From: Planctomycetota bacterium
GTDB taxonomy: Bacteria > Planctomycetota > B15-G4 > SIAN01
DNA: 64,000 nucleotides
Direction: 5' to 3'
Assembly (NCBI GenBank): GCA_016795285.1
Contig: JAEUIC010000029.1
Span: 133,518-197,517, forward strand
The notes beneath the pieces are model-generated. The model did not search any database and was not told where the DNA came from. It saw only the letters and a list, made by a program, of their open reading frames with translations. Position numbers and translations under genes: made by a program. Shown piece by piece: positions 5,069 to 45,229 of this stretch; position 1 is the stretch's first letter; every line of letters starts with the position of its first letter.

Positions 5069-8000
5069 ATGCGCACGCCGCTCGCCTTCGGTCCCGCCAC
5101 CGCGCTCACCCTCGTCGCGCTCGCCCTCGCGCCGCTCTTCGCCGGGCCGCTGCCGGCCCCGCTCGATCCGCAAGCGGCGCAGGCGCTCGCCGCTGACGCC
5201 TCGCTAGCGAAGGTGGTCGATCGCGAGGGGATCGGTCTGGCGCGCGCCGGCCATTCGCTGCGTTGGCGGACCGCCGAGCCGAACGAGCCGCTCTTCGCCG
5301 GCGAGTGGTTGAAGACCGGCGCGCGCGGCGCCCATGCGCTCGAGCTGCGGACGAAGGGCGGCGCGCGGTTGATCCTCGGGCCGGGCGCGCAGCTCGAGCT
5401 GATCGACGCGGCGACGCTGCGGGTGGCGGCGGGCGAGGTGGAGATCGGCGCCGACGCGACGCAGCCGCTCACCGTGCGCGGGCCGGGCGAGACGGTGCTG
5501 ACGCTCGCCGCGCCGACGGTCGTGCGCGCGACGGAGGGGCGCCTCGAGGCGCTGAAGGCCGAGCCGCCGTGGCTCGCCGGCTTCAAGGCGGGGCAGCCGA
5601 CCGAAGCGCTCGGCTCGCTGCTCGCCACCATCGACGGCCGCGAAGTGCCGCTCACGCTCGGCTACCACAAGGTGACCGTCGACATCCGCGACCAGATCGC
5701 GCGCACCGTCATCGAGGAGAGCTTCGAGAACCACACCAGCACGGTGCTGGAGGGGGTCTTCTACTTCCCGCTGCCGGCCGACGCGTCGATCTCGAGCTTC
5801 GGCATGTGGATCGGCGACGACCTGGTCGAGGCCGACATCGTCGAGAAGGAGCGCGCCCGCGCCATCTACGAGCAGATCCTGCGCGAGAAGCGCGATCCCG
5901 GCCTGCTCGAGTGGACCGGCGGCAACCTCTTCAAGGCGCGCGTCTACCCCATCAGCGGCGAGAAGCGCATCAAGATCGGCTACACGCAGGTCCTGAAGAA
6001 GCGCGACGACACCTTCCGCTACCACTACGCGCTGCAGAGCGAGCTCTTGCGCGCGAACCCGCTGAAGCAGCTCTCGATCGACGTGCACGTGAGCTCCGCC
6101 GAGCCGCTCGCCGCCGTCGCCTCGCCGTCGCACTCCTGCCGCGTCGAGGCGACCGCGCATGCGGCGACCGTCTCCTTCGAGGCGCAGGAGCTCCGCCCCG
6201 ACCGCGACTTCGAGCTGCGCTTGGCCACGGTGCCGGCGGTGAACGGCGGCGCGTGGCGCGGCAGCCCCCACCTCTCCTTCGTCGACGACCAGCGCGGCGA
6301 CGACGGCTACTTCATGGTCCGCTTCACCGCGCCGCCGGCCGAGGTCTGCCCGCCGCCCGACGAGTCGGTGCCGAGCGACTGGCTGCTGCTCTGCGACACG
6401 TCGGGGTCGCTCCGCGGCGCCGCGCGCGAGCGGCAGCTCGAGTTCCTCGAGGCGCTGCTCGCCTCGCTCGGACCGCACGACACGATCCAGGTGGCGACTT
6501 GCGACGTCGCGACCCGCTTCGCCTTCCCGGCGCCGGTTTTCAACGACGAGGCGAACCGCGCGGCGGCGCTGAAGTTCGTCCTGCAGCGCGAGGCGCTCGG
6601 CTGGTCCGACCTCGCGGGCGCGTTCGGCGAGTGCTTCCAAGCGATGCGGAAGGAGACGCAGCTCGTCTACGTGGGCGACGGCATCGCGACGCTCGGTGAC
6701 GCCGATCCGGCGAAGTGCGCCGACGCGATCACCAAGGCGTTCCCCGGTCGGGGCCGCGTCCATGCCGTGGTGCCGGGCAACGCGCAGGAGCCGCTGGTGC
6801 TGCGCGCGATCACGCGGCTTGGCGACGGGTCGCTGCGCGAGATCGGCGGCGGCAGCGACGCGACGCAGGTCGCCGCGGCGCTCATCGCCGATGCCACCGA
6901 CTGGCGCGCGACCGACTTGAAGGTCGCGTTCGACGGCGTGCCGGTCGCTGCCGTCTACCCCGAGACGCTGCCGAGCCTCGCCATGGGCGAGCAGCAGATC
7001 GTGGTCGGCCGCTACGACGCGCGCACCGCGCGGCGCGGCACCGTGCGCGTCACCGGCCGCGGCATGGCGCCGCTCGAGCTGCCGATCGTGCTGGATGACT
7101 TGGGCGAGAAGGGCAGCTTCCTCCCGCGCCTCTGGGCGCGCCACCACATGGACCACCTGCTGGCGCAGCCCGCCAGCAAGGCAACGCGCGAGCAGGTGCT
7201 GGCGCTGTCGGAGGAGTTCCAACTGGTGTCGCCCTACGCGTCGTTCTTGGTCCTCGAGAGCGAAGCGGACCGCGAGCGCTTCCGCGTCCAGAAGCAGACG
7301 CGCATGCGCGACGGCGAGGAGTTCTTCGCCAAGGGGCGCACCGACGGCGACTTCGCGCTCGCGCAAGCGCAGATGGAGAAGGCAGAGCTCTGGCGCGTCG
7401 GGATCCGGCGCGACGTCCTGGCGATGCTGGCGGCGCTCGATCGCGATCTCGTCGAGCGGCTGCGGCCGCAGTCGAACGAGGTGGCGTGGGGCGAGGATCG
7501 CCTCGAGATGGTGACGCGCTCCTTCGCGACAGGGGGCGGCGGCGGTGGCCGCGGCGGGTGGCAGTTCGCTGGCATGCGCGGACTCGATGCGCGCAGCGGC
7601 GCCGCGCAGAAGCCGGGGGCACCGACCGGCGGCGGATGGGACGGCGGGGTCGACAAGCTGAATCGCGTCGCCGCGAACGGCAACGAGCTGCTCGATTTCG
7701 CCGGCGGCGAAGCGGAAGGAGCCGCGAGCGACTCCGATGGCGAGGACGATCTCGGCGGCAGCGACCTCCCGCCCGCCAGCGAGCAGGCGCCCGAACCGGC
7801 GGCGACACCAGCGCCCGGGGAGGCGAGTTTCGATGACGCCACCGCCGGCGGCTTCGCGCTGAAGAGCCGCGCGAGGCGCGCGCAAGCGTCGGCGGCTCGG
7901 CCGATGGGCGGCCTGTCGAAGTTCGGCTACCTCAGCGACCTCGGCGACCTCAGCGGCGAGCGCGACGCCAGCCGCGGCCGCGACGACGGGCGCAGCTGGT

Positions 8001-11000
8001 ACGCGCGCGCGCCGCGTCCGGCGCCGCTCGATCCCTTCACCAGCTGCCTGCCCGGGATCGCGCCGCCGTTGCCGCCGCGCACGCCCGCCTTCGACGGCGA
8101 GGTCGCGGCGCTGCTGGCGACGCTCGACGGGCGCGCGCGGATCGCCGCGCTGGCGGGCGGCATCGAGGTGAGCCTGCGCGGCACGACCACGTCGCGGCGC
8201 GGCACGACGCTCTCGCTCGGCGAGGGGCGCGCGCTGCTGGCGGCCGATGGCTGGTGGAGCGAGCCGCTCCATCGCGCCGGCGACGACGCGACGATCGAGT
8301 GGTGGGACGGCGCGCAACGCGGCGCGTGGAGCCGCGCGTGGCAGCTCGGGCGCGTCCGCGCGACGCGCGCCGGCGACGCCGCGAGCTTCCCGGCGCTCCA
8401 CTCCTGGCTCTTCCCCGACCTCGACGCGCGCTTCCGCGGCCACGCGGTGACGTTCGGGCGCAGCGACGATGGACGCGTCCTGCTGCACCTCATTCCGCCG
8501 GGTGCACGCACGGCGTCGGGCGACGGCAACTTCACCGACGTCCTGATCGATGAGGCGAAGGCGCTGGTCCTCGAGGAGCGCTGGTTCTCCAGCAACGTCC
8601 TCGTCCACGTGGTGCGCGTCGAGGAGAGCCGCGAGGCGGCCGGCCGCTGGTGGCCGACCCGCATCGTCGCCGAGTCGCCGCGCGAGTCGACCCGCGTCGA
8701 GTGGCAGCTCGAGGTGACCGCGCTGGCCGCCGCCGACTTCGCGCCGCGCCTCGCTGCGGCCCTCGCGCCGCGCGCCGCGCTGATCGAGCTGCCGGAGCTC
8801 GACCCGACGCTGCACCCGACGCCGGCCGCCGCGTTGGCCGCCGCGCGCCAAGCCGTCGCCGACGGCAAGGCGGGCCTCCTCGAGCGCTGGCTGCTGCTCT
8901 CCGCCGCGGCCGCGCGCGACGAGCACGACGCGACGCGCGCCGCCTTCGCCGAGGTCGCCGCGCTCTGTGGCGGCAAGCCCGGCCTCGCGCGCCTCGAGCT
9001 GGTGCGCCACCTCGTCGTCCGCGAGCACGAGACGCTGCGCCTGCAGCTGCTCGCGCGCGCCGCGGCCGAGGCGGCCCGCCGCTCGCCGGGCGAAGTGGCG
9101 CGCGCCGAGACGCTCCTCGCGCTGGCGGCGCCGCTCCACGCCGGCGACGAGCAGCTCGCGCTGCTCGACGCGCTGACGCCGCTGTTCGAGCGGCAGCCGG
9201 ACGCGCCATGGGCCCGCTTCGGCCACGCGCGCCAGCGCCTCGCGCAACTGCAGGCGACGCCGCGCAGCGACGAGGCGTACGCCGCCGCGGAGAAGCTGGC
9301 GCGCGACTTCCCGACCGAGGTCGAGGCGCACCTCACCTGGAGCCAGTTCCAGGCGCAGCGCGGCGCCATCGATGCCGCGCTGCGGACGCTGGCCGACGCC
9401 GCTTCGAAGCATGCGCCGTGGAGCAGCGGCGAGCAGCAGCAGCTCGCCGACGCGCGCGTCACGCTGCTCTGGAACGGCTACCGGCTGGAGCAGCTCGTCG
9501 ACGAGACGAAGGCGCTGCTCTCGACCGACGCGGAGCGCGTGCCGCAGCAGCAGCTCGACCGCTACCTGAGCGCGCTGGTGATGCTCGATCGCGAGGCGGC
9601 GTGGTGGAGCACGATCGAGCAGTGGCTCGGCGAGGCGCGCGCGACGGTGCGCGCCGGTCGACGGCTCGGGGAGGGCGAGGAGCGGCGGCTCGCGGCCGCG
9701 GTCCGCCACGCGTTGGGGCAAGGCGAAGGGTGCTGGTGGTGGAATCGGCGGTTCGAGCCGGCCGAGGCGCAGCTGCTGGCCGACACGGGCCGCGAGCTCC
9801 TCGCCGACGAGCGGGCGGGACGCTACGGCGCGCAGCTGCTGCCGGCGCTGGGGGAGACGCTCGAAGGACGCGCGGCCTACGCGGCGCTCTGGAGCGAGCT
9901 GCGCGAGAACGCGGCGACGGCCGCGGCAACGCGCGTCGCGCGCTTCGTCGCGCTGCTGCGGCAGGTGAACTACCAGCCGGCCGGCGAGGAGGCGACGTGG
10001 CAGGCGCTCTTCGCCGCGCTGGCGGCGCGCGCGGCGGCGACCAGCGATGCGAACGAGCGCGCGGCACTCGAGACGCTGCTGCTCGGCTACGCGCAGAACG
10101 CGCTGCAGCTCGACGTGCGGCGCGCTCAGCTGGCGCGCGCGAGCAGCGACGCCGAGCGCGAGGCGGCGGCGGCGGCGCTCTTCGCGGCGCTGCTGCAGGA
10201 GGGGTGGAGCGAGCCGTTCGAGACGGAGCTGCGCGGGCTGATCGAGCAGGTCGGGCCGGGCGCATCCGTGGAGCTCGCGACCGCCGCGACGGAGGCCGCG
10301 AAGGAGGCCGCGCGCGGGCGCCGCTTCGCCCGGATCATCGCGTGGCACGACTTCGTCGATTGGGCCATCGCGGCGCGCGCGAAGGCGGCGGTCGCCGCGC
10401 TGCCCGGCAGCAATGCGCTGCCGCGCAAGAAGCTGCAGTTGGCGCAGGAGGAGCAGACGCGACTGGCCCGCCTCGCGGTCCACGCGCGCCTCACCGCGGA
10501 GCTCGAGCGGGCGCCGGACGGCGAGTTCGCCGACTGGCTGCGGCTCGACCGCGCGTGGCTCGACGTGAAGCTGCGCCGCGACACCGAGCCGGCGCGCCGC
10601 GAACTCCTCGCCCTCTTGGCACGGCGCCTCGATGCGGCCGGCGCGACGCCCATCGAGGAGCTCGAGCGGGACGCGCTGGTGGCGGCGCAGCGAGCGGCGA
10701 CGACGCTGCTCCATCTGCTCGCGACCGCGCCCGAGGCGGCGCGCGCGGAGCAGCAGCGCGAGTGGCTGGCGCTGCGCGATGCGGCGCAGGCGACGAAGGG
10801 CGCGCTGCTCGACTGGCAGGAACTCGACTGGACGCGCCTGGTGGCGCTCGATCGCGGCGACGAGCTGGTGGCGCTGCTCGAGCGGTGGCTCGGCGACGGG
10901 ACGCAGTACGCGTTGCTGCGCTTCGGGGTCGACCTCGCGTGGCTCCATGCGGAGCGCGGCGAACTCGACAAGGCGATCGCGCTGGGTTGGCGGCTGGCGG

Positions 11001-13861
11001 AGAAGGAGGCGCTCGGCCACGACGACTGGAACGCGCTGGCGGCGTGGTGCACGGCGCGCGGCCAGCAAGAGGCGGCGGCGCGCGCGCAGCTCGAGGCGTG
11101 GCTCGCGGTCGACGCCGACACGCTGCAGAACTTCCTCTGGCAGCAGCGCTGGCAGCTCGACGATCGCGGCGACGGCACGCCGGGCGAGCTCTCGCCCCAC
11201 ACCTTCGCTCAGGCGATCGCGATGCTGCGCAAGGCGGAGCAGCCGTCGCAGCACCTCTGGGTGATCCGCGACCTCTACGGCCGCACGAAGGAGTTCCGGC
11301 TGCTCGAGTGCCTCGCGGAAGGAGTGGTCGGCCACACGGCGCAGGGGATCTACGCGTTCCTCGGCGACCTCGCGGCGCTGGAGGCGCTGATCGACGAGGA
11401 GGCGACGGTCGATCGCATCGCGCAAGGGATCGCGAACGCGCGGCCGCGGGCGAAGAGCGCCGTCGATGCGCGCGCGCTCCGCTACCTCGAGTTCCTCTCG
11501 CGCTGGCGCGCCTCCGCGCAGGTGAATGGCGGCGCGGCGCACGCGACGGCGGCACTCGCCGCGATGAAGGCGGCCTTCGAGCCGGCCATGCAGCCGGGCG
11601 AGGGAGTGCTGCTGGCCGCGTTCCTCGCGCGCCTCGACCGGCTCCACGCCCCCGAGCTGGTGGCGGAGCAGCTGCGGCAGCTCGCCGCGCTGCTCGCCGC
11701 CGAAGCGGTCGGCAGCGACGCGCGCCTCGCGGTGGCTGGCGCGCTCGCCACCGCCGAATGGAATGCGAATCGCCACGACGCGTCGCTGCGCACCCTGCAG
11801 GGTGAGCTGCTGGCGCGGCGGCGCGCGAACGGCGATCGGCTGCCCGACAGCGCCAACGGGGCGCTCGCGACGCTGGTCGAGCGGCTCGCCACGCGCGGCC
11901 GCTTCCTCGAGGCGGAGAAGCTGCTGGATGATGAGCGGAGCGGCGAGCGCGTCGTCGCGCTCCACGCGAGCCGCGGCCACTGGCTCGAGCAGCAGCTCCA
12001 CGCGCTCTTCGCGCGCGCGCTGCGCGACCGCGGGAGCGTCTCGCTCGGCAGCGGTGCGGAGCTCTTCGCGAAGGCGCGCGCGGTCGTGCTGGAGCGCCTT
12101 GCGACGCGGAGCCACGAGGGGCGCGCGCAGGAACTGGTCGACGAGTTCGTCGCGCTCTGCCGCGCGGCGCACGAGGTGAGGCTGCCGCGCGTCGGCGAGG
12201 AGCTCGAGCAGTTCGCCTTCCAGCAGCTGCCGCGCACGCTGGCGGCCTACCAGTACCGGAACGGCCAATCGATGGTCGCGAACGTCGCGCAGGCGTTGCG
12301 CGATCTGGCGAGCGCGCCGGTCGCCGTCGAATTCCTCGTCACGCGCGCCGAGACGGAGCCGCGCTGGATCGCGCGCATGGGGCAGTCGTTCTTCGATCAG
12401 CAGGGGTGGCAGCTCGCGCGGTGGCGCCATGAGGCGCGCCGCCTCGACGAGCGGCTCGAGCGGCGGCTCCTCGCGTTGGTGGTGGCCGAGCTGCGCGGCG
12501 AGATGCGCCACGGTCGGCAACGCGCGCGCGGCTTCTACGACATCGCCTACGACACCTTCTGGGCGGCGAAGGCGGCCGACTTCGCGGCAGCCGCGAAGGC
12601 GGAGCACGCGGAGGGGCGCGACGACGAGGCGGTGACGCTGCGCGTCGCGGACTACCTCTACCAAGGGCTGAAGCGCCCGGCGGAGGGCGTCGCGTTGCTG
12701 CGCGAGCGGCTGCGCGGCGGCCGGCTCGGGCTCGATGGCCAGGTCACCTTCTGCCGCTGGCTCCACGAGCAGCGCGGCGACGCCGAGGCGAAGCCGTTGC
12801 TCCTGAAGCTGATCGCGGCGCGGCCGGGGCAGCTCGACCTGCGCTTCACGCTGATGGCGGTCTGCACCGCGCTGCGCGAGCCGGCGGAGGCCGATGCCGT
12901 GCGCGCCGGCTGCGAGAGCTGGCTGCGCGAGAGCAAGCAGTGGGACGTCGAGGAGAACGTGCGGCAGCTCGCGTGGGCGTGCTACGAAGCGGCCCTCTGG
13001 GAGCACGCCGCCGCCTACTACGGCGAGGCGATCACGATGCGGACGCGCAGCCACGGCGCGCGCGCCAACGGCGACGGGACGCTCGGCCCCTACTACGAGC
13101 GGCGGAGCGAGGCGCTCGCCAAGCTCGGCCGGACGATGGAGGCGATCGATGCGGCGGCGGGCGCGATCGTCGCGTGGGGCGCGAACCTCGACGAGCGCAA
13201 CCGGGCGCTGCGGACGCTCGACGGGGCGATTGCGTCGGCGCGCGACCTCGCGGCGGTGGCGGCGCGGATCGACGCGGAGGTCGCCGCGAGCGGCCTCGAG
13301 AACCCGCTGCTTCGCAAGTCGCTGGCGAAGGCGTGGCGCGAGCGCGGCGAGCTCGAGCAAGCGCAGGCGCAGCTCGAAGCGGCGCTCGAGGCGGCACCTG
13401 ACGACGCCGAGGTGACCCAGCTCCTGCTGCAGGTGCACGACGCGCGGCGCCAGCCGGAGGGGGCGATCGCGGCGCTCTTCGCGGCGATGGAGGCACGGCC
13501 CCACGATCTCGAGCTGCTGGTCGAGCTCGGCGCGCGGCTGACGCGGATCGAGCAGGCCGAGCGCGCCGAGCGGGTCCACACGCAGCTCGTCGAGGCGTTC
13601 CTCGGCGAGAGCGAGGGGCACGCCGCGCTGGCCACGGTGCGCGAAGCTCAGAAGCGCTACCGCGAGGCCGCCCTGCAGTGGGAGCAGGTGATCCGGATCC
13701 GCGGCAACGAGCCGACCGGGTGGCTCGGCCTCGCGAAGTCGCTGCTCGCCGCCGGCGACCGCGACGCCGCCCGCGCCCCGCTCGACAAGCTGCTCTCCAC
13801 CGACTGGGAGGCCCGCTTCGGCGACGTGAAGAGCGAAGCGCGCCGGCTGCTCCGCCGCTGA
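5069..13861 (+). CDS. Giant (2930 aa) secreted VIT-vWA domain protein with a C-terminal alpha-helical/TPR-like region of about 2200 aa
   Basis: Signal peptide. VIT domain signature (YHKVTVDIRDQIARTVIEESFENHTSTVLEGVFYFPLPADASISSFGMWIGDDLVEADIVEKERARAIYE...GNLFKARVYPISGEKRIKIGYTQVL). vWA domain with MIDAS motif (LLLCDTSGSLRG). The remainder is long, Leu/Ala/Glu/Arg-rich helical repeats. The 2948-aa ORF on the opposite strand is compositionally Arg/Pro-rich and has no domains, so it is judged a shadow. Confidence 0.8.
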   Translation: MRTPLAFGPATALTLVALALAPLFAGPLPAPLDPQAAQALAADASLAKVVDREGIGLARAGHSLRWRTAEPNEPLFAGEWLKTGARGAHALELRTKGGARLILGPGAQLELIDAATLRVAAGEVEIGADATQPLTVRGPGETVLTLAAPTVVRATEGRLEALKAEPPWLAGFKAGQPTEALGSLLATIDGREVPLTLGYHKVTVDIRDQIARTVIEESFENHTSTVLEGVFYFPLPADASISSFGMWIGDDLVEADIVEKERARAIYEQILREKRDPGLLEWTGGNLFKARVYPISGEKRIKIGYTQVLKKRDDTFRYHYALQSELLRANPLKQLSIDVHVSSAEPLAAVASPSHSCRVEATAHAATVSFEAQELRPDRDFELRLATVPAVNGGAWRGSPHLSFVDDQRGDDGYFMVRFTAPPAEVCPPPDESVPSDWLLLCDTSGSLRGAARERQLEFLEALLASLGPHDTIQVATCDVATRFAFPAPVFNDEANRAAALKFVLQREALGWSDLAGAFGECFQAMRKETQLVYVGDGIATLGDADPAKCADAITKAFPGRGRVHAVVPGNAQEPLVLRAITRLGDGSLREIGGGSDATQVAAALIADATDWRATDLKVAFDGVPVAAVYPETLPSLAMGEQQIVVGRYDARTARRGTVRVTGRGMAPLELPIVLDDLGEKGSFLPRLWARHHMDHLLAQPASKATREQVLALSEEFQLVSPYASFLVLESEADRERFRVQKQTRMRDGEEFFAKGRTDGDFALAQAQMEKAELWRVGIRRDVLAMLAALDRDLVERLRPQSNEVAWGEDRLEMVTRSFATGGGGGGRGGWQFAGMRGLDARSGAAQKPGAPTGGGWDGGVDKLNRVAANGNELLDFAGGEAEGAASDSDGEDDLGGSDLPPASEQAPEPAATPAPGEASFDDATAGGFALKSRARRAQASAARPMGGLSKFGYLSDLGDLSGERDASRGRDDGRSWYARAPRPAPLDPFTSCLPGIAPPLPPRTPAFDGEVAALLATLDGRARIAALAGGIEVSLRGTTTSRRGTTLSLGEGRALLAADGWWSEPLHRAGDDATIEWWDGAQRGAWSRAWQLGRVRATRAGDAASFPALHSWLFPDLDARFRGHAVTFGRSDDGRVLLHLIPPGARTASGDGNFTDVLIDEAKALVLEERWFSSNVLVHVVRVEESREAAGRWWPTRIVAESPRESTRVEWQLEVTALAAADFAPRLAAALAPRAALIELPELDPTLHPTPAAALAAARQAVADGKAGLLERWLLLSAAAARDEHDATRAAFAEVAALCGGKPGLARLELVRHLVVREHETLRLQLLARAAAEAARRSPGEVARAETLLALAAPLHAGDEQLALLDALTPLFERQPDAPWARFGHARQRLAQLQATPRSDEAYAAAEKLARDFPTEVEAHLTWSQFQAQRGAIDAALRTLADAASKHAPWSSGEQQQLADARVTLLWNGYRLEQLVDETKALLSTDAERVPQQQLDRYLSALVMLDREAAWWSTIEQWLGEARATVRAGRRLGEGEERRLAAAVRHALGQGEGCWWWNRRFEPAEAQLLADTGRELLADERAGRYGAQLLPALGETLEGRAAYAALWSELRENAATAAATRVARFVALLRQVNYQPAGEEATWQALFAALAARAAATSDANERAALETLLLGYAQNALQLDVRRAQLARASSDAEREAAAAALFAALLQEGWSEPFETELRGLIEQVGPGASVELATAATEAAKEAARGRRFARIIAWHDFVDWAIAARAKAAVAALPGSNALPRKKLQLAQEEQTRLARLAVHARLTAELERAPDGEFADWLRLDRAWLDVKLRRDTEPARRELLALLARRLDAAGATPIEELERDALVAAQRAATTLLHLLATAPEAARAEQQREWLALRDAAQATKGALLDWQELDWTRLVALDRGDELVALLERWLGDGTQYALLRFGVDLAWLHAERGELDKAIALGWRLAEKEALGHDDWNALAAWCTARGQQEAAARAQLEAWLAVDADTLQNFLWQQRWQLDDRGDGTPGELSPHTFAQAIAMLRKAEQPSQHLWVIRDLYGRTKEFRLLECLAEGVVGHTAQGIYAFLGDLAALEALIDEEATVDRIAQGIANARPRAKSAVDARALRYLEFLSRWRASAQVNGGAAHATAALAAMKAAFEPAMQPGEGVLLAAFLARLDRLHAPELVAEQLRQLAALLAAEAVGSDARLAVAGALATAEWNANRHDASLRTLQGELLARRRANGDRLPDSANGALATLVERLATRGRFLEAEKLLDDERSGERVVALHASRGHWLEQQLHALFARALRDRGSVSLGSGAELFAKARAVVLERLATRSHEGRAQELVDEFVALCRAAHEVRLPRVGEELEQFAFQQLPRTLAAYQYRNGQSMVANVAQALRDLASAPVAVEFLVTRAETEPRWIARMGQSFFDQQGWQLARWRHEARRLDERLERRLLALVVAELRGEMRHGRQRARGFYDIAYDTFWAAKAADFAAAAKAEHAEGRDDEAVTLRVADYLYQGLKRPAEGVALLRERLRGGRLGLDGQVTFCRWLHEQRGDAEAKPLLLKLIAARPGQLDLRFTLMAVCTALREPAEADAVRAGCESWLRESKQWDVEENVRQLAWACYEAALWEHAAAYYGEAITMRTRSHGARANGDGTLGPYYERRSEALAKLGRTMEAIDAAAGAIVAWGANLDERNRALRTLDGAIASARDLAAVAARIDAEVAASGLENPLLRKSLAKAWRERGELEQAQAQLEAALEAAPDDAEVTQLLLQVHDARRQPEGAIAALFAAMEARPHDLELLVELGARLTRIEQAERAERVHTQLVEAFLGESEGHAALATVREAQKRYREAALQWEQVIRIRGNEPTGWLGLAKSLLAAGDRDAARAPLDKLLSTDWEARFGDVKSEARRLLRR

Positions 13862-13864
13862 TCC

Positions 13865-13965
13865 CCCACCAGGTGCCGGGGAGTTTCCGTCTCGCCCGGT
13901 GCCGGGGAGTTTCCGTCCGGCCCGGTGGCGGGGAGTTTCCGTCCGGCGCGGTGGCGGGGTTGATT
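13865..13965. repeat. Tandem direct repeat array: three units of about 26 bp (GGTGCCGGGGAGTTTCCGTC...) followed by a variant unit (GGTGGCGGGGTTGATTCTTCC)
   Basis: Read directly from the sequence: caccaGGTGCCGGGGAGTTTCCGTCtcgccc / GGTGCCGGGGAGTTTCCGTCcggccc / GGTGGCGGGGAGTTTCCGTCcggcgc / GGTGGCGGGGTTGATTCTTCCgcg. The array lies in the convergent intergenic region between the VIT-vWA gene and the TonB receptor gene. Confidence 0.85.
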
Positions 13966-14023
13966 CTTCCGCGAGCGGGGACGCGCGTCGGTGACGAGGA
14001 CGCGTCGGAAGAATCAACCCCGC
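13944..14023. repeat. Perfect 22-bp inverted repeat (GGTGGCGGGGTTGATTCTTCCG ... CGGAAGAATCAACCCCGCCACC) enclosing an inner palindrome (GACGCGCGTC / GACGCGTC). A large hairpin could form.
   Basis: Seen directly. The arms are the same motif variant as the two repeats upstream of the DinB-family gene at 20245..20290. Confidence 0.8.
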
Positions 14024-14089
14024 CACCGGTGCGGACCGCCGCGAGCGCACCGTCGGTGGCGCGCTCGCGGCGAGGCGATCAGGAGGCGA

Positions 14090-16207
14090 TCAGAACGTGA
14101 ACTCGAGGCGCAGGTAGAGCTGCCGCGGGGCGCCAGCGACCTTGCCGCCGCCGAAGAAGCCGCCGCGCGAGTGGACCAGCCACTCCTCGTCGAAGAGGTT
14201 GCTGGCACCGAGCGCTGCTCGGATCGTGCGCCCCCCCTCGCGTTCCCACGTCTTCTCGACTTGCGCGTCCCAGATCGTGCGCGACGGGTTGTGGCCGAGG
14301 TTGCCGTTCACGTTCTCGACCGCGGTGTTCGCCTCGTCGGAGAAGGAGTCGCCGACGTAGGTGCCACCCAGCGAGAAGCGCAGCCCGCCCTCCGCGAGGT
14401 AGTGGAAGTTCCACGCCGCCTTGCGCTCCCACGCGTACGGCGTCTCGTTGCCGCGGAACGGCCCTTCGCGCAGCTCCGACTCCTGCAGCGACGCCGAGAC
14501 CATCGCCCCGAAACCGGCGAGCGGCTCCCACATCGCGCCGGCATCGGCGTGCAGCGTGGCGTCGACGCCGTGCGCGACGATGCGCCCGATGTTCTCGTAG
14601 AAGCCGGAGTAGAAGACGCCGACGTCGTCGAAGTCGGTCCGCCACGCTGCCACGGTCCCGTCGATGCCGCCCGGCAGCTCCGCCCGCGTGCCGACCTCGA
14701 ACGAGTCGCCGTGCTCGAAATCGACGTCCTGCGCCGCCGCGCCCGCCGCGAGGTTGAACCCCCACACCTGCGGCGCCCGGAAGCCGCGTTGCCAGTTCGC
14801 GAACAGGGCCCAGTCGTCGCGCACGCGCCAGCTCGCGCTGACGCCCGGCAGCAGCGTGAAGAAGCGGTCGTCGAAGTCGCCGCCAAGCACCTCGTCGTCG
14901 CCGTCCGCGACCGGGATCCACTCGGCGCGCACGCCCGCGGTCAGCTCGAGCCCGTCGAGCGGCTCGAGCGTGTCGTCGACGTGCGCCGAGAACGACGTCA
15001 GGTCGAAGCTCGAGTCCTGCAGCACCGTCGCCGAGCCGCCGCCGAACGGCGTCGAGACGATCTCGTAGTCGGGCAGCCACTCCTGATGGGCGCGCAGTCC
15101 CCAATGGAGGCGATGGCCGCCGGCCGCGGCGAAGCGTCGCTCGCCGCGGATGCCGAGATCGACCCACAGCGAGTCGTCGGTCCAGTCGCGCACCTCGGTC
15201 GGCGCGCCGAACAGCGGGCGGCGCGCGGTGAGCTCGCGATGAGTCTGGCTGAACGCGACGTACGGCTCGATCCACGCCTCGTCGTTGCCGCGATGGTGGA
15301 CGACGTCGAACGCCGCGCGGAACCCGTCGAAGCGGCCCTCGGGCCGGGCGTTGCCGAAGCGATCGGCGGCGAACTCGGCGACGGTGAGGCCGCCCGGCGC
15401 CTGATGGCTGTCGGTGAACCACGAGAAGCGCGTCGCCGTCCACGCATCGGTGCCGTGCTCGCGGCGCAGCTTCACCTCGAGCGACTGCTGGTCGTACGCG
15501 CCGTCCTCGCGGTAGCCCTCGCCGCGCCGATCGCCGAGCGTGACCAGCCAGCCGAGCGCGCGATCGCTGCCGTCGCCGATCGTCGCCACCGTCGACATCG
15601 CATCGAACGAGCCGTAGGTCGACTGCAGCGACGACTCGAACCGGTCGGGGATCGGCCGCGTGATCACGTTGAGCACGCCGCCCACCGTGTTGGGCGAGTA
15701 GCGGACCGCTTGGCCGCCGCGGAGCAGGTCGATCGCGAAGACCTGCTCGGGGAAGAGCGGGAAGAACGAGAGCGCCGTCCAGCCGTACGGCAGCGGATTG
15801 GCCGGAACGCCGTCGATCAGCGGCAGCACGTACTCGGTGAGGCCGTCGTCCGGCAGTCCGTGGATCGAGAAGCTCGGCGCGGCCGCCTCGCCGCCGTTGT
15901 AGGGCCGCGTCGAGAGGGCCGGCAGGTAGAGCAGCAGGTCGTTCAGGTCGCGAGCCCCGATGGCGCGCACCTCCGCGGGACCGAGCACGTCGCGCGAACC
16001 TGGATGGCCGATCGGCACCACCGGCACGCCCGCCTGCCCGACCGAGCCGGTGACGAGCACCGCCGGCAGCTCGAGATCGGGCTTCTTGCCCCCCTCCTTC
16101 GGATCGGGCTCGCGAGCGCTCTCCTGCGCGCGCGCGACCGCTGGCGCGACGACGATCCCGAGCGCGACCCAACGCGACCTGCCCCGCATGCTCATCGGCG
16201 ACTCCAC
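14090..16207 (-). CDS. TonB-dependent outer-membrane receptor
   Basis: Signal peptide, plug-domain motifs, long beta-barrel region, C-terminal ...RLEFTF ending in Phe. 705 aa. Confidence 0.9.
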   Translation of the reverse strand: MESPMSMRGRSRWVALGIVVAPAVARAQESAREPDPKEGGKKPDLELPAVLVTGSVGQAGVPVVPIGHPGSRDVLGPAEVRAIGARDLNDLLLYLPALSTRPYNGGEAAAPSFSIHGLPDDGLTEYVLPLIDGVPANPLPYGWTALSFFPLFPEQVFAIDLLRGGQAVRYSPNTVGGVLNVITRPIPDRFESSLQSTYGSFDAMSTVATIGDGSDRALGWLVTLGDRRGEGYREDGAYDQQSLEVKLRREHGTDAWTATRFSWFTDSHQAPGGLTVAEFAADRFGNARPEGRFDGFRAAFDVVHHRGNDEAWIEPYVAFSQTHRELTARRPLFGAPTEVRDWTDDSLWVDLGIRGERRFAAAGGHRLHWGLRAHQEWLPDYEIVSTPFGGGSATVLQDSSFDLTSFSAHVDDTLEPLDGLELTAGVRAEWIPVADGDDEVLGGDFDDRFFTLLPGVSASWRVRDDWALFANWQRGFRAPQVWGFNLAAGAAAQDVDFEHGDSFEVGTRAELPGGIDGTVAAWRTDFDDVGVFYSGFYENIGRIVAHGVDATLHADAGAMWEPLAGFGAMVSASLQESELREGPFRGNETPYAWERKAAWNFHYLAEGGLRFSLGGTYVGDSFSDEANTAVENVNGNLGHNPSRTIWDAQVEKTWEREGGRTIRAALGASNLFDEEWLVHSRGGFFGGGKVAGAPRQLYLRLEFTF

Positions 16208-16371
16208 GTGCCCCCGTTCGGGGGCCGCGGCGAAGCAAACGAGGCGCCCCGAACGACGCGGCGAAGCGCGCGCAACGCTCGAGTCGCGACGTCATTCCGT
16301 CACCGTCGCGTGACCGCTGCACGAGCAGCGGGAACGACCGCCTGCCCACTGCGCGAGCGCCACCAGCAGCG

Positions 16372-16478
16372 ACCGCGAACGCCGGTGGCGGGGAGTTTCC
16401 ATCCACCCCGGTGGCGGGGAGTTTCCTTCCGGCACGGTGCCGGGGAGTTTCCGTCCGGCAAGGTGGCGGGGTATCTCC
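16372..16478. repeat. Tandem direct repeat array (four units) of the same GGTGSCGGGGAGTTTCC family. It lies about 170 bp upstream of the TonB receptor start.
   Basis: cGGTGGCGGGGAGTTTCCatccacc / cGGTGGCGGGGAGTTTCCttccggca / cGGTGCCGGGGAGTTTCCgtccggcaa / GGTGGCGGGGtatctcc. Confidence 0.85.
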
Positions 16479-16495
16479 ACCACGATCCGATCGCG

Positions 16496-18034
16496 TCACC
16501 AGCGTTCGCGGGTGAGCGGGATGACGATCGTGCGGCGATCGCCGGAGTTCACCGTGAACTCGATGGGAGCGATCGGCTCGAAACCGTCGATCAGTTCGAA
16601 CTCGACCGAGTAGGTGCCTTCAGACCAGAACGGCTGATCGAAGCTGCATGCCGATCCGTCGCGCGATTCGCCGCGCCAGCGAGGTCTCGGCCTCACCGTC
16701 GCCCATGGCAGTGGCACGCGTGTCTCGCCGTCGTGCAGTTCGAACGCGATTCGTGCAATCGCCGGCTCGTCGGGATTCGACCAGTTCCCGCCGCATTCGA
16801 AGCCGTCCCGCGCGGCCTGCGCGAGATCTCCGCTGGCGACCTTGATCCTCGAACACTCGCTGCCCTCAGCGTGACCGGACGCCAGCACGATCGGGCGCAC
16901 TCCTTCGCGCAACCCCGGTTGCCGCACCAATTCCACCGGCCCGACCGGCACGTCGGTCACGCTCGCACGGTTTCCGATGAACTTGACGGGCGCGCTCCGC
17001 CAACCGTGAGTCGCCCGCCCCGATCGCAGCCACACACCGACCCGATCATTTCGCGACGGCATCACCTCCTCACCCACTGCGACGATCTCGACCTCCGTCG
17101 CCGGCCAGAGCCGCACTTCGCGCGCGCCACCGCCGCGCGCATCGATCTCGAGAGTTCGCTCGACGCGACCCGCTGCCTGCACCGTCAACTCGATCTCTCC
17201 CGCCCACCAGTCCGCGATGCCCGCCTGGACCTTGAACCCGCCCGCCTCGGTCCACCACGCGCCGCCATCGATGCACCTCTCGCTGCGCTCCTCCCCACGC
17301 ACGATGCCAAACGCGAACGACCCGCCCTGCCGCACGAACTCCCACGATTCACCCAACGCGTCGAGCGGCACACCGGCTTCCGCGGCCACGACTCGGACGA
17401 AGGTCGCGGGCGGCGCGATCCACCGCAGCTCCGCTTCGCGCTCCTCGGACAGCCGGCGCCAACGAACGTCGAGCGGCAGCACGCGCTCGCCTTCGCTCGT
17501 CGCGAACGCCCGCCACCAGATCTTCGAGCGCGGCAGCTCGGCGAACGCGGCTGGCGGCGTCGCGACGAAGCGATCGCCGTTGACGGGAGGTTGGTGGATG
17601 TGGACTGCGCCGCCCGCCCAGAACTCGACGCGCACCGACGGATCGAGCTCAGGCAGCTTCATCCACTCGGGCACGCGGCGATCGATCGTTCCGTGCACCG
17701 TCGGCAGCGGCTCGGCGGCCGTCGACGGCCGGTCGAGCTCACGCAACACAAGCCCCGTCAGCGAGAGGCTCGCCACGTTCCGATCGGAGCCTCCCGGTTC
17801 GGTCGGCGACACGATCGCGGACGCGGCCTTCGACGACTCGCTCGCGCCCCGCCCACCGCTGCCGCCTTCGGCGAGCACCGCGCGATCGAACCGCAACTCG
17901 GGCATCTCCGGGGAGCACCCCCCAGCGAGCAGCGCCGGCAGCAGCGGCGCCACCATCACTCGCCGAGCCCTGCCCGATCGATCGCCGATCGCCATCGCTC
18001 GCTCCTCGTCGCGGTCGGCAGCGTGCCGATGCAT
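16496..18034 (-). CDS. Hypothetical lipoprotein. The likely true start is about 17956 (MVAPLLPALLAGGC lipobox-like signal).
   Basis: The ORF has high GC3 and varied composition, and the N-terminal signal ends in a Cys. It lies upstream of, and on the same strand as, the TonB receptor gene. Confidence 0.55.
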   Translation of the reverse strand: MHRHAADRDEERAMAIGDRSGRARRVMVAPLLPALLAGGCSPEMPELRFDRAVLAEGGSGGRGASESSKAASAIVSPTEPGGSDRNVASLSLTGLVLRELDRPSTAAEPLPTVHGTIDRRVPEWMKLPELDPSVRVEFWAGGAVHIHQPPVNGDRFVATPPAAFAELPRSKIWWRAFATSEGERVLPLDVRWRRLSEEREAELRWIAPPATFVRVVAAEAGVPLDALGESWEFVRQGGSFAFGIVRGEERSERCIDGGAWWTEAGGFKVQAGIADWWAGEIELTVQAAGRVERTLEIDARGGGAREVRLWPATEVEIVAVGEEVMPSRNDRVGVWLRSGRATHGWRSAPVKFIGNRASVTDVPVGPVELVRQPGLREGVRPIVLASGHAEGSECSRIKVASGDLAQAARDGFECGGNWSNPDEPAIARIAFELHDGETRVPLPWATVRPRPRWRGESRDGSACSFDQPFWSEGTYSVEFELIDGFEPIAPIEFTVNSGDRRTIVIPLTRERW

Positions 18035-19747: not shown

Positions 19748-20233
19748 TCACCCGCGCGGCTTCTCGAGCGCCCCGCTCCGCACGGCGTGGATGTAGTCGA
19801 TCAGCGGCGGCGCGATGCCGGTCGCGCGCAGTTCGGCGAGGAGCTGCGCGCGGTGGTGGGTGCCGTGCAGGGCGACGTGGTGGAGCACGTCGGCGACGAC
19901 GCTCTCGAACCGTTCGCCCTTGCTGTTGACGTAGGCGAAGGTCGAGGCGAGCGCGGCGTCCGGGGTCGCTGCTGACTGCGCGCGCCACGCGCCGCGCAAC
20001 GGCGCGAGCTCGGCGACGCACTGCTCGAGCGACCACGCCGGCCAGACCGGCAGCGGCGCCGACTCGCCGCGCAATCGCGAGAGCCACAGCCGCGACGCGC
20101 CGATCACGTGGGCGAGCAGCTTCACCGAGTGCGGCGGCGCGCGCTCCGCTGCCGCCGCGAGGTGGAGCACCACCTCGCGATTCGCCCAATCGTCGTAGTC
20201 GAACAGCCGCTCGAGCGCCGCGGGAAAGGCCAT
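19748..20233 (-). CDS. DinB/YfiT-like (DinB_2 family) metal-dependent hydrolase-like protein
   Basis: 161 aa. Conserved His residues in a helical bundle (WANREVVLHLAAA..., HHVALHGTHHRAQL) are typical of DinB_2. Confidence 0.7.
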   Translation of the reverse strand: MAFPAALERLFDYDDWANREVVLHLAAAAERAPPHSVKLLAHVIGASRLWLSRLRGESAPLPVWPAWSLEQCVAELAPLRGAWRAQSAATPDAALASTFAYVNSKGERFESVVADVLHHVALHGTHHRAQLLAELRATGIAPPLIDYIHAVRSGALEKPRG

Positions 20234-20244
20234 CGATCACTCCT

Positions 20245-20290
20245 CCGGTGGCGGGGTCGATTCTTCCGGCCTGGTGGCGGGGTCGATTCT
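20245..20290. repeat. Two tandem copies of GGTGGCGGGGTCGATTCTTCC immediately upstream of the DinB-family gene's RBS and start codon
   Basis: Read in the gene's orientation: GGAAGAATCGACCCCGCCACC-aggcc-GGAAGAATCGACCCCGCCACC-GGAGGAGtgatcgATG. Confidence 0.85.
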
Positions 20291-20333
20291 TCCGCGCCGC
20301 GCGCGCCGCCTCCGCCGCTCACCGCCCCGCCGC

Positions 20334-39804: not shown

Positions 39805-41219
39805 TCACTCCGGCACCTTCCAGCGGCCGCCCTTGTCGGGGCCGATGCGTTCCAGGCGGCCTGCCTCGCGCAGCTTGCGGACGGCCCGCTCGATGGCACG
39901 CAGTGACTTGCCGAGCTGCGCCGCCACTTCGGGCAACGACAAGCCCGGGTCCGACCGGAGCAGCGACCGGATCGCTTCGGGCGTTTTCACCGGCGTTTTC
40001 ACCGGCGTTTTCACCGGCGCCTTCGGGGCCTTCCTCTGGGGCGCCGCCGCCAACAGGGAGAAGGTCACGACCACCGCGCGATCGCGAATCGACACGACCG
40101 GCGGCGTCAGGCCGCGCTCCTCCATCAGTCGCGCGATCTTGAGCGTGCCGCGGCCCCACGTCTCGATGATCCCGCGCCGATAGAAGGTGCGCGCGATCAT
40201 GGGGTTCCACGGCTTCGACTCGTGTTCGCGGAAGAGCGCCTCGGGCGTCAGGCCGAAGTGCAGCTCGCCGATCGAGATGATCTCGAGCCGATCGTCGTAG
40301 AGCGCGACGCTCACCGAGCCACCGCCGATCGCGTAGTCGCGATGCACGAAGGCGTTGGCGAGCGCCTCGCGCAACGCCTCCACCGGCAAGAGCGGGGTGT
40401 CCTCGCGCTCCATCCGGTCCGGAACGATGCGCCCCCGCACGGGCAACGACTCGATCAGGAAGCGCTCCGCACGGCGCATCAAGGCGAAGGCGTTGCCGTG
40501 GAACTGGCGGTGGTCGAGGAACTCGTCACGCGTCGTCCCTCGGAATCGCGCCACCTTGAGCAGCAGTTGCGGGAACTCGGGCAGGGGCACCTCCTCCGAA
40601 CAGAAGAGCGCCACTGCCGCCCGCGACACCCGATCGCCTTCGACCAGCAGCCCGAGTCCGCGCAGGATCTCGAGCGGCTCACGCGTCCCCGGATCATCGA
40701 TCCGGCCGCGACGGATCGCCTCCTCCAACGTGAGCACCAACTCGCGCCGATCGAGCCGCGTGATGTCGAATCCCGTGGCCGGTCGATTCTCCCAGCGCTC
40801 GGTCGCGTGCATCTCCTCCAGCAGCAACCGCTGGAAGGTCTCGCGCGGCATGACGCGAGTCGTGTTCAGCACCCGTTCGTACGCGACCCCACGGAAGGCG
40901 ATCGGAGCGCGAGGACTGTGCTGGGCGGAGAGCAGCAGCACCTCGCGCCCTCCGCCGATCGCGACGCGTTCCACTGTCGGAAAGAGCGGCGGCTCGAATC
41001 GCTGGACCTCCTGCGGAGCTCTTCGAGGGTGCGTTCGTTGACGATCTGCGCGACGACCTTCCCGGCTGGCGTCACGCCGATCACCACGCGCCCGCCTTCG
41101 CCGTTGGCGAACGCGCACACGGTGCGAAAGGCTCGCTCCTTCTCCGCCGTCGACTTCTTGAACTCGAGCGTCGCCGACTCGCCGGCGGCGGCCAAGTCCG
41201 CGAGTTGATCGGGATTCAC
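39805..41219 (-). pseudogene. Schlafen/AlbA_2-like domain plus HATPase_c_4-like ATP-binding domain plus C-terminal wHTH protein (often annotated as 'RecG-like / putative transcriptional regulator'), interrupted by a frameshift near 41001..41023
   Basis: The N-terminal AlbA_2 signature (ESATLEFKKS...ERAFRTVCAFANGEGGRVVIGVTPAGKVVAQIVNERTLEE) is in ORF 40866..41219. The rest (QEVQRFEPPLFPTVERVAIGGG...IAFRGVAYERV...HATPase-like...wHTH) is in ORF 39805..41118, in a different frame. The switch occurs within gaagagctccgcaggaggtccag. A KAPKAPVKTPVKTPVKTP repeat is present. Confidence 0.6.
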
Positions 41220-44515: not shown

Positions 44516-44593
44516 CGAGCGGACCCATCCGCGGCCGCCGTCGTCGGCGACCGCCACATCTCCGCGGCCGCCGTCGTCGGCGACGGCCATATC

Positions 44594-45229
44594 TCAGCGC
44601 ATCTTCGTCTGGTTCTGCACCTCGACGAGCTTGCCGTGGAGGTCGAGCACGAAGGTGAGCGTCGCTCCCGGCCGCAGCCGCGCCACGCCATCGCCGCCGA
44701 TCCGCTCCTGCGCGTAGCGCACCAGGATGAAGTGCTCCTCGTGGTCGATCGCGTCGAAGCGAAGCGTCCCCGCCTCGGGCGGCAGCGCGAAGAGCTGCGG
44801 GTTGCCTGACAGCACTTGCTCGGTGAAGAGGCGGATCTGCGGATCGCCGAAGACGCCGGGGCCGAGCTGCCGCGACAGCGAGAAGCCCTTGATGGCGATC
44901 AGGCCGGCGATCGGCGCCGCGTCGGGCTCCTGCGACTCGATCTGCTGGTAGTCGCGCAGCGTCCAGTCGACCGCGCCCTTGGCGCCGCCGACTCCGGCCG
45001 CGCTCGAGGAGCCGTCGTCGTCATCGCAGTCGTCGTCGTCGTCGTCCCAGCCGTCGTCGTCGTCGTCGAACCAGCCGTCGTCATCGTCGTCGTAGTAGTC
45101 GTCGTCGCAGCCGGTGCGGACGCTGCAGCTCGCGCCGCCGAGCGCGCCCGCTGCGAGCACGAGGACCGCCACCTTGGCGAGTGTCCGCCACCCGCTGCCG
45201 ATCGCGCCGCCCATCCCACCGCCCATCCC
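44594..45229 (-). CDS. Lipoprotein with an extreme poly-Asp tract
   Basis: Signal and lipobox-like sequence (LVLAAGALGGASCS), then CDDDYYDDDDDGWFDDDDDGWDDDDDDCDDDDGSSS, then a beta-rich domain of about 130 aa. Start is approximate. Confidence 0.5.
   Translation of the reverse strand, partial: GMGGGMGGAIGSGWRTLAKVAVLVLAAGALGGASCSVRTGCDDDYYDDDDDGWFDDDDDGWDDDDDDCDDDDGSSSAAGVGGAKGAVDWTLRDYQQIESQEPDAAPIAGLIAIKGFSLSRQLGPGVFGDPQIRLFTEQVLSGNPQLFALPPEAGTLRFDAIDHEEHFILVRYAQERIGGDGVARLRPGATLTFVLDLHGKLVEVQNQTKMR

Follow-up and report, generated by a model that had tools for sequence, protein, structure and literature searches.

We analyzed a 64,000-nucleotide stretch of planctomycete DNA (Planctomycetota bacterium, GenBank assembly GCA_016795285.1, contig JAEUIC010000029.1, positions 133,518 to 197,517), hereafter named the window, in which a cluster of short repeats (13861–14030) lies in the gap between the stops of two convergent genes. 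The left-hand gene (5069–13861, plus strand) encodes a protein of 2930 residues with Pfam VIT and VWA_3 domains, and the right-hand gene (14090–16207, minus strand) encodes a TonB-dependent receptor with Pfam Plug and β-barrel domains and is bracketed by two arrays of the repeat placed on the same strand. The cluster is composed of three head-to-tail units, termed type A, and an inverted doublet of a second unit, type B, similar to a REPIN (REP doublet forming a hairpin). It is very probably a cluster resembling repetitive extragenic palindromes and bacterial interspersed mosaic elements (REP/BIME) and belonging to a RAYT/TIRYT-type system, that is, a set of non-autonomous mobile elements of this planctomycete genome related to those of the REP-associated tyrosine transposases (RAYTs) or of the tyrosine transposases associated with terminal inverted repeats (TIRs; TIRYTs). 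The family is of an already known kind, REP/TIR-RAYT, and is not a new regulatory device.

Architecture and folding of the repeats

Array 1 (13872–13949, plus strand) is separated by 10 nt from the stop codon (TGA) of the VIT/vWA gene and consists of three type-A REP-like units arranged head-to-tail with an exact 26-bp period. By direct reading, the full units begin at 13872, 13898, and 13924, and each is made up of GGTG[C/G]CGGGGAGTTTCCGTC followed by a variable 6-nt tail; Tandem Repeats Finder detects the same period over 13872–13959, with 3.4 copies, 93% matches, and a score of 141. The array is continued by a type-B REP-like unit, GGTGGCGGGGTTGATTCTTCCG (13950–13971, plus strand), which forms the left arm of the doublet, while the right arm is an inverted type-B unit (14006–14027, minus strand) that is the perfect 22-nt complement of the left one. 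Between them lies a 34-nt spacer, or loop (13972–14005), containing the palindrome GACGCGCGTC at 13980–13989, and at 90% complementarity the arms lengthen to 31 nt (13941–13971 and 14006–14036). A preliminary description of this region, made without database searches, had reported a 26-bp tandem array ending in a perfect 22-bp inverted repeat around an inner palindrome, coding on neither strand. Both statements are borne out, with three full units plus the variant one, all situated between the two convergent stops. The 11-mer core of the units occurs six times exactly and once with one mismatch, compared with 0.59 expected occurrences, a level reached by none of 100 shuffles, and the 21-mer variant is matched four times, compared with none expected; here too the shuffles stayed below the observed count.

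The preliminary description missed two other arrays, at 16384–16478 and 20247–20298; with these, a profile search of the whole 64-kb window gives three sites carrying 10 units and no further copies. Array 2 (16384–16461, plus strand, as array 1) contains three type-A units with the 26-bp period; the receptor gene starts 176 nt from it, with the array on the upstream side, and the array also follows the stop of another gene (16496–18034, minus strand). It ends with a degenerate unit, GGTGGCGGGGTATCTCC (16462–16478, plus strand), which resembles a third type, C (GGTGGCGGGGATCTTTCCACC). Array 3 (20247–20298, plus strand) is located between two minus-strand genes and is formed by two type-B units (GGTGGCGGGGTCGATTCTTCC), again with a 26-bp period. 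The three types are distinguished by their inner sequences, ...GGGGAGTTTCC... in type A, ...GGGGT[T/C]GATTCTTCC... in type B, and ...GGGGATCTTTCC... in type C. Array 3 adjoins the GGAGGAG Shine-Dalgarno sequence and ATG codon (20233) of the minus-strand gene 19748–20233, to which it is antisense, and it could affect the translation initiation of this gene or operon read-through.

A CRISPR identity, already set aside in the preliminary description, was rejected because the variable part between the cores is only 6–9 nt long and the Rfam CRISPR-DR matches are far below threshold. When Rfam was searched at a permissive E-value over 13000–17500, only chance-level matches were obtained, and no family fits the repeats.

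The well-kept units of the family are 27-nt imperfect palindromes, and because neighboring palindromes in the tandem arrays share one base, the period is 26 bp. As single-stranded DNA (ssDNA), the best-kept type A, GGTGCCGG-GGA-GTT-TCC-GT-CCGGCACC, folds with −10.1 kcal/mol (z −4.4), and types B (GGTGGCGG-11 nt-CCGCCACC) and C reach z values of −4.6 and −3.9, respectively. The doublet forms a very stable hairpin on either strand (z −3.6 and −7.7). As RNA, the tandem arrays are only marginally stable (z −1.4 and −2.0), and the idea that each tandem unit forms a strong RNA hairpin was abandoned on the basis of these values. A scan for promoters and terminators gave no promoter-like sites, no T tracts, and two weak terminator-like matches, both derived from the unit sequence.

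The stability of the doublet on both strands would suit an RNA function as the primary role of the repeats, with 3′-untranslated region terminators, mRNA stabilizers, or protein-binding hairpins spread by convergent selection, and so would the placement of the arrays, which usually follow a stop codon at a distance of 1–35 nt and in many loci point the same way as the upstream gene. However, in arrays 2 and 3 the units run antisense to the genes on either side, tandem units show little structure as RNA, neither an Rfam family nor a T tract accompanies them, and a transposase gene flanked by identical units, described below, accounts directly for their spread. A primary RNA role is thus decidedly unlikely, while an exapted terminator or stabilizer role of the doublet, as a secondary effect of a mobile repeat, is likely.

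Dispersal of the units and the associated tyrosine transposase

A scan of metagenome contigs that required two exact cores spaced 26 bp apart yielded 12 loci, 10 on GC-rich contigs with units identical to those of the window and two in AT-rich satellites. Except for one contig (L004), which carries the orthologous locus, the 10 GC-rich contigs share nothing with each other or with the window beyond the arrays. When genes were called on these contigs from codon-position GC, all arrays fell outside genes, with one or more stop codons at a distance of 1–35 nt, and many were situated between convergent genes. In many loci, the array has the orientation of the upstream gene, and inverted array pairs are present in five of them (L001, L002, L009, L010, and L011). 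The same pattern had no match in the species-representative genomes, and the nearest genome in GTDB has another unit type and spacing. The two AT-rich loci (L007 and L008), which are 26–27-bp satellites with a GGGGAGTTTCC core, were discarded as relatives, their detection being a coincidence of the search pattern. The core of these satellites also matches the consensus of the eukaryotic NF-κB site.

With units at 10 or more unrelated loci, located at the 3′ ends of genes, an operator or iteron specific to this locus is largely ruled out, and the inverted placement of units around a Y1/HUH gene likewise speaks against the iteron or binding platform proposed in the preliminary description. A set of binding sites, whether for a regulator of the receptor gene or for an initiator of replication at a nearby origin, would be in line with the fixed 26-bp period, with array 2 upstream of the receptor start, and with array 3 beside a ribosome-binding site. 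Yet most of the many unrelated genes that the units adjoin are approached at their 3′ ends or in convergent gaps, where there is nothing to regulate; one related strain lacks the array and another possesses it without the receptor gene; and there is no rep gene nearby, no AT-rich origin, and no promoter-like site. Such a role appears extremely improbable. The GC skew across the window was uninformative on the direction of replication.

The cognate gene of the unit family occupies a single locus and, as judged from its sequence and surroundings, encodes a Y1/HUH tyrosine transposase similar to the RAYTs and TIRYTs. In four loci (L009 and L013–L015), an open reading frame of 335 codons lies between three plus three type-A units in inverted orientation. 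Its product passes the Pfam Y1_Tnp cut-off (30.1 bits, cut-off 23), and JGI labels many of its homologs "REP element-mobilizing transposase RayT". The histidines of the HUH motif, H60 and H62, and the catalytic tyrosine Y119 are invariant among 32 aligned homologs, in which a C-terminal block is conserved as well. This C-terminal extension is probably helix-turn-helix (HTH)-like, as suggested by HTH_23 and HTH_24 matches above the Pfam cut-offs in two homologs (P0068 and P0119) that are weak or absent in three others (P0001, P0002, and P0004). A phmmer search of the PDB with the transposase gave no matches.

Orthologs from other samples, with 64–67% identity, occupy the same syntenic locus and are flanked by type-A units (L016) or by both type A and type B (L017), while an ortholog from a metagenome-assembled genome (MAG) of GTDB with 59% identity (L021) is flanked by type-C units with the same head, GGTGGCGGGGATCTTTCC. 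The flanking repeat type thus changes with the transposase variant, from A to A plus B and C. The syntenic orthologs share only 59–67% protein identity compared with ~88–92% for the flanking genes (L013/L021, also L016 and L017), indicating that the transposase evolves much faster than its neighbors. A paralog with 45% identity resides at a different locus (L019), between two plus two inverted 35-bp tandem units starting with GGTGCCGGGG. The layout known as a REPtron or TIRtron is hence observed at one syntenic locus with four repeat/transposase variants (L009/L013–L015, L016, L017, and L021) and, independently, in L019.

A scan of genomes with the alignment of homologs recovered 272 relatives of the transposase, almost all from Planctomycetota MAGs, plus Engelhardtia mirabilis. 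The flanks were surveyed for the best 80 of these 272 loci and were long enough in 76. Inverted repeats whose head, TACGG[TA]GCC[AG]G, is related to that of the units enclose the gene in most of these 76 loci, and in about nine, the units are in tandem. In E. mirabilis Pla133, a cultured planctomycete (L082, NZ_CP036287.1, ~4.71 Mb), the transposase homolog is flanked by a ~150-nt near-perfect palindromic block built of ~25-nt tandem units (GGGCGTACGGTGGCGGGACCATTT).

Several observations weigh against the assignment of the cluster to a RAYT/TIRYT-type system. On the repeat side, the type-A units of the window itself have decayed 3′ arms and weak folds (z +0.3 to −1.2), the arrays show no clear gain in stability over shuffles as tandem RNA, and covariation of the variable stem positions 5/23 is only suggestive (Fisher p = 0.12). 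Only ~60% of the units possess the canonical 5′ GT[AG]G foot, in the form GTGG within the head GGTGGC; the others have the head GGTGCC (GTGC), the head belongs to the stem, and relatives display GTACGG or GGTAGG. On the enzyme side, the best NCBIfam match of the 335-residue transposase, REP_Tyr_transpos (REP-associated tyrosine transposase), scores 42.8, below the equivalog cut-off of 80, and a tblastn search with the transposase found no transposase gene within the 64-kb window. The link between the enzyme and the genome of the window is accordingly made through the identity of the repeats and a ~91% related strain, not through the same contig.

Three alleles of the junction and the neighboring genes

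The junction between the giant VIT/vWA gene and a 499-residue protein gene was compared in three lineages that are mutually ~90–92% identical. In one of them (L105), the site is empty and reads TGA-CTGCCGGCG-TCA (9 nt); in another (L004), it contains a two-unit array with a degenerate terminal unit and no receptor gene; in the third, represented by the window and by two contigs with 95.4% identity (L101/L102), the order is array, doublet, receptor gene, array. The receptor gene is consequently absent at this junction from two related strains, L004 and L105. In the preliminary description, the absence of the units from other strains with the same locus was held to make the repeat uninteresting. 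Such an absence is indeed observed in L105, but it marks the repeat as mobile or dispensable rather than as an artifact. Comparison of the empty and filled sites reveals no visible target duplication, which fits a Y1 enzyme. On the same grounds, together with the Y1/HUH nature of the associated enzyme, a miniature inverted-repeat transposable element (MITE) derived from a DDE transposon was rejected, and the earlier term "MITE-like" stands in the sense of a small non-autonomous mobile repeat. The L101 and L102 contigs end inside repeats on both sides, as expected of multi-copy sequence, and such arrays explain the breaks of short-read contigs at these sites.

The window differs from L004 by 2475 bp, with both junctions inside arrays; the three lineages being equidistant (~90–92%) and the outgroup with 45% identity lacking synteny, the difference may be either an insertion or a deletion. 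This geometry, with the receptor gene bracketed by same-strand arrays, could be read as the product of att-like recombination sites at which the gene was integrated site-specifically, as in integron cassettes, and receptor homologs with 60% identity are indeed found in a different context, beside a TonB gene. On the other hand, no integrase is seen in the annotated immediate neighborhood, a survey for recombinase genes not having been extended to the rest of the window; at other loci, the arrays mostly occur singly or in inverted orientation and enclose no similar gene; and homologous recombination between the two 78-bp arrays accounts equally well for the difference. We consider the cassette scenario very unlikely.

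A further scenario, likewise unlikely, is that the two same-strand arrays served as the left and right ends for the HUH/Y1 enzyme. The 2.5-kb segment with the receptor gene would then be a passenger that entered an existing REP array in single-stranded form, by "peel-and-paste" transfer. If this were the case, the REP arrays of an HTH-bearing RAYT lineage could mobilize ordinary genes, the 26-bp tandem arrays would be multi-site landing pads for the C-terminal HTH domain, and "domesticated" RAYT systems would be linked to the traffic of gene cassettes.

Named homologs of the receptor are planctomycetal, and those with 60% identity, located elsewhere, may be paralogs. Exact database look-ups returned no record for either the receptor protein or P0006. 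Just downstream of the receptor gene stop, a separate hairpin (14037–14072, minus strand) with a 15-bp GC-rich stem is conserved in L101; it resembles a terminator or a 3′-end hairpin, without a T tract. A perfect 11-bp tandem repeat (GAGGCGATCAG x2, 14072–14093) ends at the stop codon of the receptor gene and is present in three copies in the 95%-identical strain (L101/L102), which makes it a small variable-number repeat at the 3′ end of this gene. Elsewhere in the window, a perfect 12-bp tandem repeat, GGCGTTTTCACC x3.3 (39980–40019, 100% matches), is unusually T-rich within sequence of 73% GC. A 33-bp repeat in 2.2 copies (44528–44599, 92% matches) and a ~95-bp CGT-rich array with 21/24-bp periods (45013–45107) are probably in-frame coding repeats.

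Proposed mechanism and comparison with known systems

By analogy with the IS200/IS605 family and with E. coli TnpA_REP (PMC6006769), the transposase would recognize a unit of the REP/BIME-like family as an ssDNA hairpin during replication, and then cleave and rejoin this hairpin, seeding copies in positions immediately after stop codons, where they are tolerated. The 26-bp tandem arrays could subsequently arise by slippage or duplication in place, or by re-insertion, and the copies would decay afterward, as may have happened to the type-A units of the window with their degraded 3′ arms. Two secondary effects can be envisaged: the doublet hairpin probably acts as a bidirectional transcript-end or mRNA-stabilizing structure for the two convergent genes, and the two same-strand arrays may, by recombining with each other, allow the receptor gene to be gained or lost.

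Understood in this manner, a conspicuous repeat is explained as selfish or domesticated mobile DNA, which averts its mis-annotation as a CRISPR array, an iteron, or a small RNA. The junction with its three alleles (empty, array, and array-gene-array) provides a compact natural example of REP-associated variation in gene content. The survey also documents, for Planctomycetota, RAYT-like transposases that probably bear an HTH and whose genes lie between short palindromic units; the same units populate the genome as tandem arrays.

The closest likeness on the side of the repeats is to the REP/BIME/REPIN sequences and their RAYT (TnpA_REP) enzymes, such as the REP-BIME of E. coli with YafM and the REPINs of Pseudomonas fluorescens. 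The shared traits are 26–27-nt imperfect palindromes that are extragenic, multi-copy, and clustered, inverted doublets forming long hairpins, presence/absence polymorphism among strains, and a single-locus Y1/HUH gene placed between inverted copies of its own repeat (REPtron), with the repeat type following the transposase variant. Unlike in BIMEs, where inverted pairs alternate, the present units are mostly arranged head-to-tail, in tandem arrays whose period is exactly 26 bp. Their 5′ foot, GGTG[G/C] (TACGG in the wider family), does not conform strictly to a GT[AG]G placed outside the stem. With 335 residues, the transposase has twice the length of the RAYTs, with its probable HTH-like C-terminal extension and an NCBIfam score below the RAYT cut-off, and the host belongs to the Planctomycetota and not to the Gammaproteobacteria. 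Head-to-tail dimers and clusters of REPs have been described (Di Nocera et al. 2013, PMC3733652).

The IS200/IS605 elements (IS608, ISDra2) have in common with the present system the HUH/Y1 chemistry and the lack of target duplication. Their ends are recognized as same-strand hairpins, a geometry matched by the two same-strand arrays around the putative passenger gene. However, the bracketed segment in the window does not carry a transposase, the repeats are dispersed without the gene, and the transposase falls into class 2 (RAYT-like, Y---N[P/A]) and not into the IS200 class.

The long RAYT-like Y1 protein, with a probable C-terminal HTH and a gene located between terminal inverted repeats, is also reminiscent of the TIRtrons and their TIRYTs. 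The latter were reported to be flanked by inverted repeats, dispersed as families of dimers or clusters in some genomes including that of the planctomycete R. baltica (Di Nocera et al. 2013, PMC3733652), and they mostly correspond to TnpAY1 subclass 2.1, which comprises long, HTH-bearing proteins (Quentin et al. 2018, PMC6006769). The TIR motif GGGGWSAS (PMC3733652) is not matched by the present units, as none of type A (GGGGAGTT, 6/8), type B (GGGGT[T/C]GA), and type C (GGGGATCT) fits all eight positions (8/8). Moreover, the TIRs were described as non-palindromic, whereas the well-kept units found here are self-complementary and are thus closer to REPs than to TIRs. No REP-like sequences were found near subclass 2.1 genes by Quentin et al. 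(2018, PMC6006769); REP-like units do flank the present transposase, which resembles that subclass in its length and probable HTH. The family falls between the two descriptions, with an enzyme resembling those of TIRYT or subclass 2.1 and with repeats resembling REPs.

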